DNA from: Octopus vulgaris
Lineage: Eukaryota
Assembly: GCA_951406725.2 (NCBI GenBank)
Contig: OX597825.1
Span: 1,860,001-1,924,000, forward strand
DNA length: 64,000 nt
Reading direction: 5' to 3'
The position numbers and the translations under genes are program-made. Of the stretch, positions 4,409-48,608 are shown in pieces (within the stretch, counting starts at the first letter, position 1; each line of letters opens with the position of its first letter). Below the pieces are notes generated by a model. The model did not search any database and had not been told where the DNA came from. It saw nothing but the letters and a program-made list of their open reading frames with translations.

Positions 4409-4495
4409 GATATGATTATATATATATGTGTATGTGTGTGTATGTGTGTATACATGTATATATATATACAAACATACATATGCATATATATGTAT

Positions 4496-4822
4496 ATATT
4501 GTTGATAGTGAATTCGAGGTTTCGACCAGTTAAGCCATCGTCAGACTGCAAGGCATTAGAGTTAGTCTTTCTTTTATATAGCCTCTGTAGAGTGAAGAAT
4601 TATCTTTGTGTGTGTGGGGGTGGGCTGGAGTGAGGTGGTAAAGGTAAGAAGACTAAATCTAATGCATCGCAGCCCGACGATGGGTTAGCTGGGCGAAAAC
4701 TTCAATGTCACTGTCAACAACATTCTTGTAGAAGAATAATAAATCTGTGCTCTACAGAAATACGGAACAACCCAACAGATGAATGTAAAATTGTTTTTAT
4801 CATAACTGATTGAACAAACATT

Positions 4823-11000: not shown

Positions 11001-11310
11001 TATAACATCTGTTGTGCACTAAATACTTCTCTTCGCTTGTATAAATGTTTTGTGTTTGTTTTGCTCCTGTGGCGCATAAACATTTTATTACTAATTCCAC
11101 GATTATCTTACTTTTCGCTTCTCATATTTTCATTGCGTGATTTCCCTAAAACGCACATTCGCAGCTCTTTTACCTCTTTGGTATTGTGCAGTCTCTCGTT
11201 TTTGTTTTTTGTGATTTTCCTTTTCCTTATTTAAAGTATTCGACGAATGCCTCGTAGTGCTACTTTCTGAGTGTTGCATATGTTTATGAGTCCTTTTATA
11301 TATATATATA

Positions 11311-11433
11311 TACCGGGGTAAACACATAAATGTGAAAGAAGGTGGAAAAAAAGAGTACTCAAATACCAGTGGTAGAGTAATATGCTTTATCTAAAGCAGC
11401 AGAAAATTAGAATTTTCTGCTGCTTTAAATAAA

Positions 11434-11438
<5 letters not shown>
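11311..11438 (-). mobile_element. TA-embedded fold-back insert (28-bp arms plus ~70-bp tail)
   Basis: TATGCTTTATCTAAAGCAGCAGAAAATT-AG-AATTTTCTGCTGCTTTAAATAAAGTATA; tail contains CCAGTGGT, shared with other TA-anchored termini. Confidence 0.6.
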
Positions 11439-11988
<550 letters not shown>

Positions 11989-31489: not shown

Positions 31490-31690
31490 TATTGTTGTAT
31501 TTGGGGATGGTCATGTTGCCAGTTTAGCCAATAAAAACACACGTACTATATATTTGGTGTTAATTTGCTTCAGCTTTATTCTATATTAATCGTATTTCGG
31601 TCAGAGTTCTTTCGTCACACTTCTGTGACCTCATCAGTGGTCCTTTGCTTCCTTCTTTCTTATTTGTGTGTCTTTCCTTACTAATAATCA

Positions 31691-35644: not shown

Positions 35645-36674
35645 ATATATATATATTATATATATGATGGACTCTCCCGTCTGTTTCGACGTATCGACCC
35701 TCCTCCACTAGCTCTTAACCGGTACTTTTATTTTATCGACTCTCCTCGCGGAAGAATGAAAGGCAAAGTTTAGCTATATCGAAGATAATACTTGATTGAT
35801 ACTTTATTTTATCGATTCTACCCGCCTAAAGGATGAGAAGCAAAGTTGACTATATCGAAACCAGTACTTGACGGGTGCTCTATGTTATCGATCTTAGCCC
35901 TGAAGAATGAGAGACGAAGTTCACTGCATCGAAGACAGTACTTGACTAATATTTCATTGTATCAGCCTCCAACGCCTACACCTGTACTATTGTATATATA
36001 TGTATATATGTATACATGTATACAGGCTTGGAACTACCGAAAACCACGAGACATTCATATATATATATACCTCTTTACCATATTTATTTAAACTTCAACG
36101 CATGTTACGTATATATATTTCCATGTTCACCTTCGATGTTTCTCTTCTGATAACGTCACAATAAATATGTAAATAAAGGAACCACAGAAAGAATACACAA
36201 ACACGAAACTAAACTAAACAAATCATAAAAAAACAGAAAAAAAGTCCTTTCGCAGAGCTGACAAATTCTAACCGTGAAGTGTTAGGAGAATCAGCAGTTG
36301 ATAATGATAATTTATCAATTTTGGTGATCGTAAGTGTAGTGTAGGTTTGGTGGGTGAAGCGGGTAACGGGGTATTAATTTCTGTCTACATTTTAGATTGT
36401 GGAAATATGTATAAATGTGTAGGATTTAAAACAAAATCGAATATTTTGTTATATCGCGTGTATATTATCTCCGACATCCGACCTTATACAATCTTCTTTT
36501 CATCTGCCTTTTCCTCCATCATTCTTACACACACACACACACACACACACATGTACATACATACACACCCCTGGATTCACTTCAATTGAAGTCTGACGTC
36601 CATACAACCAATCTACGCACGAACACACACGTCTATATTATACACACAGAGATGTATATATATATGAGTGTGTG

Positions 36675-46664: not shown

Positions 46665-46749
<85 letters not shown>

Positions 46750-46941
46750 TACAAAATTAGAGAATGGAGAAACATACTTAAATCAATAAAACATCAACTA
46801 TCCGATGATATTCAATCCATACTTTAATACACCATTACATAGGAGTAAAGGCAATATATAAAATGAAATGAGATATACAGTAATAGTAAAAAGATAAAGA
46901 GATATAAGTAAAAAATTACAAATACAATATGCAAATAAATC

Positions 46942-47057
46942 GAAACTGACAGCTGTTTCGGCAGTGAGGACAGTCATACCTCATTTAACCTATAAGCCAT
47001 AAAGGCAGGTATAAATGAGGCATTAACAAAGATGCCCCACGGCCTCTTCAGAGAATT
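46942..47057 (-). ncRNA. Type I hammerhead ribozyme (mirror copy)
   Basis: Reverse complement of 47935-48050. Confidence 0.8.
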
Positions 47058-47395
47058 AAATTAAGTTTGTTATAATAGTGAAAAATATTATATAATCATA
47101 TACATATAAATATAAAAATATAAAAAAGTAAAATATAAAAACTTATACATCATAATGCTACACTTGTATAATATAATACATATTTGTACAAAAAGGAAGG
47201 TAACCAGAACAAAATAAAACAAAATATATAACAGTGTATATATAATATTAATAAGTACCGATATCATACATATTTAGCTAATAGTTTTTTTTATAAAAAA
47301 AGGGGCTAACACATATGGAGATGAAAAATAATAATAATTAAATCCGTGGTACAGTTCATAAAATTCTAAAGCTATAAAAGTTAATAAAAATTACT

Positions 47396-47429
<34 letters not shown>

Positions 47430-47564
47430 GTAATAATAATAAAAAATAATAAAAATAGATACAGTTAAGTTATCACCAAGTCCATCCTTCCAAGATCGAA
47501 ATAACTATGAGTTAAGAAATGCTGACCACTAGGTAAAGAAAATTTAGATTATTATTATTATTAC

Positions 47565-47598
<34 letters not shown>

Positions 47599-47934
47599 AG
47601 TAATTTTTATTAACTTTTATAGCTTTAGAATTTTATGAACTGTACCACGGATTTAATTATTATTATTTTTCATCTCCATATGTGTTAGCCCCTTTTTATA
47701 AAAAAAACTATTAGCTAAATATGTATGATATCGGTACTTATTAATATTATATATACACTGTTATATATTTTGTTTTATTTTGTTCTGGTTACCTTCCTTT
47801 TTGTACAAATATGTATTATATTATACAAGTGTAGCATTATGATGTATAAGTTTTTATATTTTACTTTTTTATATTTTTATATTTATATGTATATGATTAT
47901 ATAATATTTTTCACTATTATAACAAACTTAATTT

Positions 47935-48050
47935 AATTCTCTGAAGAGGCCGTGGGGCATCTTTGTTAATGCCTCATTTATACCTGCCTTTATGGCTTAT
48001 AGGTTAAATGAGGTATGACTGTCCTCACTGCCGAAACAGCTGTCAGTTTC
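47935..48050 (+). ncRNA. Type I hammerhead ribozyme with ~85-nt stem II
   Basis: CTGAAGA (47941); stem II GGC.GTGGGG/CCTCAC.GCC enclosing ATGCCTCATTTA/TAAATGAGGTAT; GAAAC (48033); palindromic stem III ACAGCTGT; GTC triplet with predicted cleavage after 48044. Stem I is short (CT/AG). Confidence 0.8.
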
Positions 48051-48608
48051 GATTTATTTGCATATTGTATTTGTAATTTTTTACTTATATCTCTTTATCT
48101 TTTTACTATTACTGTATATCTCATTTCATTTTATATATTGCCTTTACTCCTATGTAATGGTGTATTAAAGTATGGATTGAATATCATCGGATAGTTGATG
48201 TTTTATTGATTTAAGTATGTTTCTCCATTCTCTAATTTTGTAGTATTAATTTACGGTAATATTATTACCCTTACCCATTTAATACAATAGATGAACTGAT
48301 TGCTTGACAATTTCTAACATCTATGTATTAATTTTTGTTGGGTACCTATCTAGCAGTATATTGGATATATATTATCCCATGGTGGGTTGAATTTTCAACC
48401 CCTATCTCATTTTATAATATATATATATATATATAAATATATATGTATGTGTGTGTGTGTATACATACATATATTTCTATATATATACATATACATATTA
48501 TATATATATGTATACACAGACATACATATACGCATATATACATATTTGTATGTGTATATATTATATATATATACATATATTTTATATATGCATATACATA
48601 CATGTACG

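Follow-up and report, generated by a model that had tools for sequence, protein, structure and literature searches.

The palindrome is best explained as a pair of truncated copies of the 3′ end of one young Penelope-like retroelement (PLE) with Hydra-clade protein motifs, placed back to back in a (TA)n repeat of the octopus genome. Both carry a hammerhead motif whose stem II measures 85 nt and for which cleavage is predicted in the dimeric state only; we give this reading a probability of about 0.85. The window, i.e., the whole 64-kb stretch of DNA that was analyzed, corresponds to C12:1860001-1924000, and the genome searched comprises 2.8 Gb. Earlier publications already cover inverted copies, a tail on one side, insertion at (TA)n, hammerheads in mirror image and a palindromic stem III; the novel part appears to be the long-stem-II hammerhead, located on one branch of octopus elements.

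The features of the locus are listed in Table 1. The two arms (46746-47445 on the minus strand and 47549-48246 on the plus strand) show 99.6% identity over the 700 columns of a pairwise alignment, the differences being a 2-nt indel inside a T run and a single base at the ATT junction; thus, the near-identical inverted arms described in the original prediction are confirmed, together with the tail on one arm only and the TA repeats on both sides. The left copy is 98.6% identical to the natural full-length copy L034 across 813 nt, and this match revealed that the proposed spacer of about 105 bp is present (103-106 nt, 47446-47551), but is not independent DNA, being the element's own upstream 3′UTR and part of the left arm. 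The right copy meets the left arm at a few bases of ATT microhomology. Both arms have five differences from L034 in common, which indicates a single source lineage. In full copies, the sequence of the tail is found directly behind the 5′ pLTR, on the way to the ORF, the ATG being located about 140 nt beyond. No host gene was found in the 64-kb window by a crude ORF listing. Elsewhere in the window, fragments at 11309-11454 are 93-96% similar to sequence of locus L133 and likely represent another repeat, while region 35727-35963 contains about three tandem copies of a 74-76-nt unit, which we take to resemble part of an octopus SINE. Two short hammerhead-like motifs on the minus strand, at 31570-31650 (core 31637, stem II of 17 nt) and at 4480-4555 (core 4544, stem II of 14 nt), both with an imperfect stem III, are probably remnants of other PLE families.

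Table 1. Features of the back-to-back insertion, in window coordinates.
Feature	Position	Strand
(TA)n microsatellite, left target flank	46669-46745	
Inverted 5′-truncated copy: element 3′ end (pLTR, tailless) and ~106 nt of upstream 3′UTR	46746-47551	-
Mirror type I hammerhead; core start 47051, C17 46948, predicted cleavage after 46948	46946-47053	-
Direct 5′-truncated copy (pLTR), beginning within (ATT)n repeat	47549-48246	+
Type I hammerhead with a weak stem I, the CUGAAGA core and GAA; cleavage predicted 3′ of C48044	47939-48046	+
CTGAAGA core	47941-47947	+
Stem II hairpin, 85 nt, 33 bp predicted, G10.1-C11.1 pair	47948-48032	+
GAA, followed by stem III and then by C17 at 48044	48033-48035	+
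Palindromic stem III ACAGCTGT	48036-48043	+
Tail, 171 nt, right arm only	48247-48417	+
(TA)n microsatellite, right target flank	48418-48436	

By its sequence, the parent element is a young PLE with Hydra-clade protein motifs. A genome search with the right arm returned 2366 candidates, 40 of which were scored and proved 98-100% identical, and an exact 25-mer of the ribozyme core occurs 628 times genome-wide; these copies and their (TA)n flanks bear out the proposal of a recently active, TA-targeting PLE family. The suggested search for arm copies beside an ORF with reverse transcriptase (RT) and GIY-YIG was also successful: full copies with a pLTR-ORF-UTR-pLTR arrangement were found in five of the 20 fetched 10-kb stretches (L031-L035). 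The complete unit is composed of a pLTR, an ORF of ~950 aa, a 3′UTR of ~1.7 kb and a second pLTR. Natural open frames of 955-962 aa were observed in three of 85 matches, and copy L066 encodes 949 aa from the ATG, with the final residues out of frame; many copies are frameshifted within homopolymer runs, where mutation and assembly error are indistinguishable here.

According to the definition of Craig et al. 2021 (PMC8557442), the Hydra clade displays a C-terminal GIY-YIG, DKT, RW[K/R], CxCx5C and CxxC/CxH. The octopus ORF contains the motifs RWR, DKT, YRDD, CxCx5C, VVY..YIG (C-terminal, GIY-YIG-like), CxxC and CxH; DKT and RWR were seen in L034 and L066, while CNCRNKNKC, CSLC and CIH were seen in L034 and L035. 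The element thus shares with Hydra the C-terminal EN, the DKT and RWK-type motifs, the CxCx5C linker and the CxxC/CxH around conserved E and N, besides insertion into (TA)n; this placement comes from motifs compared by eye with the published supplement alignment, and the tree described below includes database homologues only. The features of EN+ Penelope-like elements are also found, i.e., an ORF with RT and GIY-YIG (from motifs and homology) between pLTRs, inverted copies that are 5′-truncated, and a tail present at a single end. Pfam searches with three ORF pieces gave no RT or GIY-YIG family and nothing meaningful, so that the RT and GIY-YIG assignments derive from motifs and homology. The RT is 100% identical to an Octopus sinensis protein across 38% of the query, which makes an Octopus the likely host. 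The Naiad clade, characterized by N-terminal GIY-YIG and DKA, was rejected since here the EN is C-terminal and the motif is DKT, and so was a retrozyme, which consists of short non-coding head-to-tail repeats without an RT of its own, whereas these copies belong to a coding element and their arrangement is inverted. The octopus genome harbors at least 10 families of Hydra type whose open frames are long (718-976 aa; L131-L145). Members of the long-stem branch mostly contain Asn-rich insertions, and their ORFs are longer than those of typical relatives of ~700 aa; in a sub-branch (L134/L139/L141/L142) the aligned copies (L131, L134, L139) have other sequence in place of the CxCx5C linker.

The motif of the window copy has the characters of a type I hammerhead, namely CUGANGA, GAAA, NUH, G10.1-C11.1 and three helices, and the coordinates and the predicted fold agree with the two mirrored intact cores, each with a paired stem II of ~85 nt and a palindromic stem III, that had originally been reported. 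Stem II folds at -38 kcal/mol (z -6.4), a value as low being reached by none of 200 shuffles, and the 8-bp intermolecular self-duplex of stem III is predicted at -11.1 kcal/mol. Stem I is weak, with only two contiguous pairs beside the core, and is the weakest among the families compared. The active monomer fold lies above the MFE by 8.5 kcal/mol in the window copy, by 5.2 in the majority allele and by 2.4-8.4 in other families. No terminal loop lies near the core and no conserved loop 1-loop 2 contact was recognized in alignment A1; an Rfam scan of the window returned no hammerhead even at E<=1, just microsatellite noise. An intron in stem II, a possibility raised by the one that D. virilis carries at its hammerhead, was discarded as no joints occur in 47900-48130; a pseudoknot pairing the internal loop of stem II with a TAACAAA upstream of stem I could form in the subfamily of the window copy, but was likewise discarded, since the sister subfamily has no upstream partner.

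This sister subfamily, represented by 68 exact matches to a 22-mer, has a stem II of 86 nt in which pairing is kept. Parsing of 156 out of 161 redundant matches yielded 38 distinct variants, of which 25 were aligned and 13 were left out, five of these with deletions inside stem II. Across the 25 variants, 98.4% of the stem II cells are paired, versus 27-40% in slid controls. A two-sided change at the subfamily level was found in one stem II pair only (CG to UA via UG), the rest being mostly G-U shifts; the count of two-sided pairs was equalled in 39 of 500 shuffles of these closely related sequences, and the covariation is therefore supportive, not proof. Accordingly, the expected stem II covariation among genomic copies was seen as maintained pairing, but as compensatory change in just that pair.

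Homologous-protein searches, in which 58 and 56 candidates were scored and which do not represent a census, provided nine further families with an assignable hammerhead: stem II is 51-60 nt long in seven of them and 10-12 nt in two. In the other long-stem families, stem II folds far less stably (-9.6 to -19 kcal/mol). In a quick RT tree, the eight long-stem families all fall to the same side of a branch with SH-aLRT 99, as do two Argonauta proteins; the corresponding shuffle test (44/500) is weak because there are only two short-stem families. When the same finder was applied to metagenomic relatives, a hammerhead was called in 53 of 78, and in 52 of these 53 stem II is 10-25 nt, in line with the original view that the 85-nt stem is atypically long; shuffled loci gave one call in 234. 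The 118-nt call in L234 was left out, being inside an ORF, with an atypical stem III and of spurious appearance; the counts also omit L144 (hammerhead on the strand opposite to the ORF), L131 (L142 family, core changed), L146/L147 (no call) and the extra calls distant from the family ORF in L134, L137 and L139. The predicted long stem II has been retained along one branch of octopus elements and reaches its greatest length in the window family; the core geometry is likely unaffected by it, and the helix that it adds would be accessible to proteins or ADAR. The stem II of the 842-aa family (L132:6737) resembles that of the window family (L160:1408), as GGCC..AGACAT / TGTC..GGCC; the two families are not RT sisters in the quick tree, and pLTR exchange is possible. 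No long-stem-II PLE hammerhead was found in a literature search, which was incomplete, and longer variants may exist.

Stem III has six different sequences in 10 motifs and all of them are self-complementary, eight fully and two with one G-U pair; its palindromy is preserved despite the changes in sequence, as would be expected if two molecules cleave together, and the dimer model does predict a self-complementary stem III (PMC4209133; PMC6765202). In vitro, the cleavage of PLE hammerheads is poor (PMC4209133), and that of the PLE PAc requires its protein (PMC11167929). We lean towards cleavage as a dimer or with the help of a protein, a model in which the hammerhead would process the element RNA once two molecules pair over the 8 bp of stem III, probably assisted by a protein. 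It is rather unlikely that the hammerhead is dead, or nearly so, and that the motif is kept for RNA dimerization through stem III, delivering two templates to the two nicked strands, or for binding of the RT-EN protein. Such a loss of function would agree with the weak stem I and the high folding penalty, with the conserved palindromy of stem III, with the 43% of clusters that are two-armed and with the finding that ribozyme mutants leave PAc insertion in vitro unaffected, as stated in PMC11167929; however, eight divergent families all keep the catalytic positions, G10.1-C11.1 and an NUH site, and the pairs of stem I show sequence covariation. In the long-stem octopus hammerheads stem III is always an 8-nt palindrome, while non-octopus Hydra-like hammerheads (L171-L248) mostly have a stem III of 9-10 nt with a 1-2-nt loop.

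Candidate A-to-I editing was observed in run X1, which consists of contigs that reveal neither strand nor cleavage ends and whose RNA origin is a guess. A>G changes were found at 24 places, versus four for T>C; at least eight of the listed A>G sites fall within the ribozyme, at ~27-62% of contig depth, and are located in the upper stem II (47968, 47969, 47980, 48006, 48015) and outside it, at 48035 (A14), 48036 (A15.1) and 48038 (stem III). None of these eight sites is changed among the 38 distinct genomic variants, and genome-wide pattern counts gave no core with G at A14 and none with G at A15.1, versus 628 unchanged. As that follow a G were changed in none of five cases, the other As in eight of 19, and ADAR is known to avoid As after G. 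A14 and A15.1 are essential for hammerhead catalysis. None of the eight sites is listed in the deep run X15, and the signal is absent from the putative RNA runs X5, X6, X11 and X12, the last of which barely covers the region. A signal resembling the A-to-I editing that had been foreseen is visible as A>G changes in X1, but it is unreplicated and limited to one of five putative RNA runs. The strand bias favors the local stem II hairpin over a 700-bp duplex of the two arms; the read-through double-stranded RNA of ~700 bp that had been envisaged found no counterpart, as no read-through transcript was detected.

An alternative role for the long stem II would be that of an ADAR-sensitive switch, by which host or element edits the hairpin and the adjoining catalytic As, with cleavage turned off in some tissues. 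We consider it improbable: the A>G sites of X1 at stem II, A14 and A15.1 are absent from genomic copies and comply with the neighbor preference noted above, but the signal comes from one putative RNA run in five, with no matched DNA for X1; moreover, when a cephalopod edits a hairpin formed by a repeat, this may be incidental and without regulatory role, and the remaining long-stem families have a stem II of far lower stability. Still more doubtful is its extension to a whole cephalopod PLE branch, in which a stem II of 50-86 nt would recruit ADAR and editing of A14/A15.1 would turn self-cleavage off in high-editing tissue, forming a natural editing-gated ribozyme. No edited PLE hammerhead was found in the literature searched; if the lead were true, cephalopod ADAR activity would be tied to the control of a retroelement ribozyme.

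Returning to the preferred reading of two back-to-back PLE ends, the palindrome is an ordinary pair of truncated ends and as such already published biology: the palindrome with mirrored hammerheads, originally presented as noteworthy, is real, but it is the standard 5′-inverted structure of PLEs. Indeed, when the first 100 of the 628 listed cores were grouped with a 12-kb cut into 67 clusters, mirror-image -/+ ribozyme pairs were present in 29 (43%) and +/- pairs in none. The inverted pairs are no more than 1.2 kb apart in 15 cases out of 29, and in nine the core spacing is 1.07-1.2 kb, which makes the vicinity of the ATT repeat a hot spot for junctions; both orientations occur within 3.5 kb at 14 of the best 30 loci. 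Palindrome centers vary between loci, while L004 and L014 have in common a perfect spacer-less center near position 2415. The element has two fixed 3′ ends, 48246 and 48417, both abutting (TA)n: by the rule used, 28 distinct flanks are (TA)n after the no-tail end and 33 after the tail end, most of the others having TA within a few bases. The most likely route is that the element endonuclease nicks both strands of a TA repeat, that each nick primes reverse transcription at one of two RNA start sites, with or without the tail, and that the two resulting short cDNAs from one source, primed on opposite strands, are joined at the ATT repeat; the 3′ ends of both arms facing (TA)n and the five shared differences from L034 fit two such cDNAs. 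These fixed two-ended, always back-to-back insertions provide genomic support for priming from both target strands. That the palindrome is instead a fold-back artefact of sequencing or assembly, as the near-identity of the arms, the spacer-less center shared by L004 and L014 and the single-base deletions filling the inverted arm of L002 (L002:2415-3119; direct arm clean), presumably a type of long-read error at hairpins, might suggest, is very improbable, since the symmetry stops exactly at the fixed no-tail end of the element, followed by 28 distinct (TA)n flanks, and does not extend into the flanks, the center is element sequence and differs among loci, the orientation is always -/+, and the same structure has been published for PLEs.

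The published PLE core search, as given in PMC8557442, used a 7-17-nt spacer. Rfam missed the long-stem hammerhead and short-spacer descriptors would do the same, so that some PLEs scored as ribozyme-less may hide long-stem ones. The series of stem II lengths within one genome (10, 12, 51-60 and 85-86 nt) makes the function of PLE hammerheads testable.

As regards known systems, the closest is the Hydra clade described in PMC8557442, with which the octopus element shares an RT with C-terminal GIY-YIG, (TA)n insertion and a hammerhead in the pLTR; the supplement of that paper reports the (TA)n preference in nearly all Hydra families, and its Figure 2 legend already presents an inverted 5′-truncated copy with a one-sided tail. 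In the same source, Hydra-1_Obim has the identical CTGAAGAG core start, Penelope-13_HM has a 5′-truncated inverted copy with the hammerhead listed on both strands, and Penelope-2_SK has acag-tg-ctgt as stem III. Unlike the Hydra comparators in PMC8557442, the octopus element has a weak stem I, a tail of 171 nt versus 30-40 bp, and a unit of 5.57 kb with an ORF of ~950 aa, versus a size generally <3 kb, which is a typical rather than a strict trait. In the case of PAc (Poseidon, Anolis), studied by Frangieh et al. 2024 (PMC11167929), the two target strands are both cut and extended, and the tail corresponds to the stretch separating two RT start sites. The octopus element resembles it in its AT-rich targets and, as proposed above, in a tail defined by two start sites, cleavage and extension of both DNA strands and a protein-assisted hammerhead, but PAc belongs to another clade and its short hammerhead overlaps the ORF start, whereas that of the octopus element is ~515 nt upstream of the ATG.

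The minimal hammerheads of metazoan PLEs described by Cervera and de la Pena 2014 (PMC4209133) are similarly of type I and pLTR-borne, with a palindromic stem III and a dimer model; opposite-strand hammerhead pairs 100-700 bp apart are also reported there, as is a D. virilis variant with a helix I of 2 bp, like the one found here. The difference lies in stem II: the "larger than usual" helix II of PMC4209133 has 7-8 bp, versus ~33 bp in the octopus element, the "long helix II" of PMC13725137 has 6-8 bp, and a short stem II is stressed in PMC3088659. All Hydra rows of File S2 (PMC8557442) show hairpins of at most ~24 nt, versus 85 nt here; the longest stem II regions in that file (~50 nt, flagged as deviating) are those of PLE-X1_sMoe and PLE-X1_sTam, which are spike-moss EN- elements and, unlike the octopus hammerhead, combine a short stem with a large loop instead of forming a long helix.
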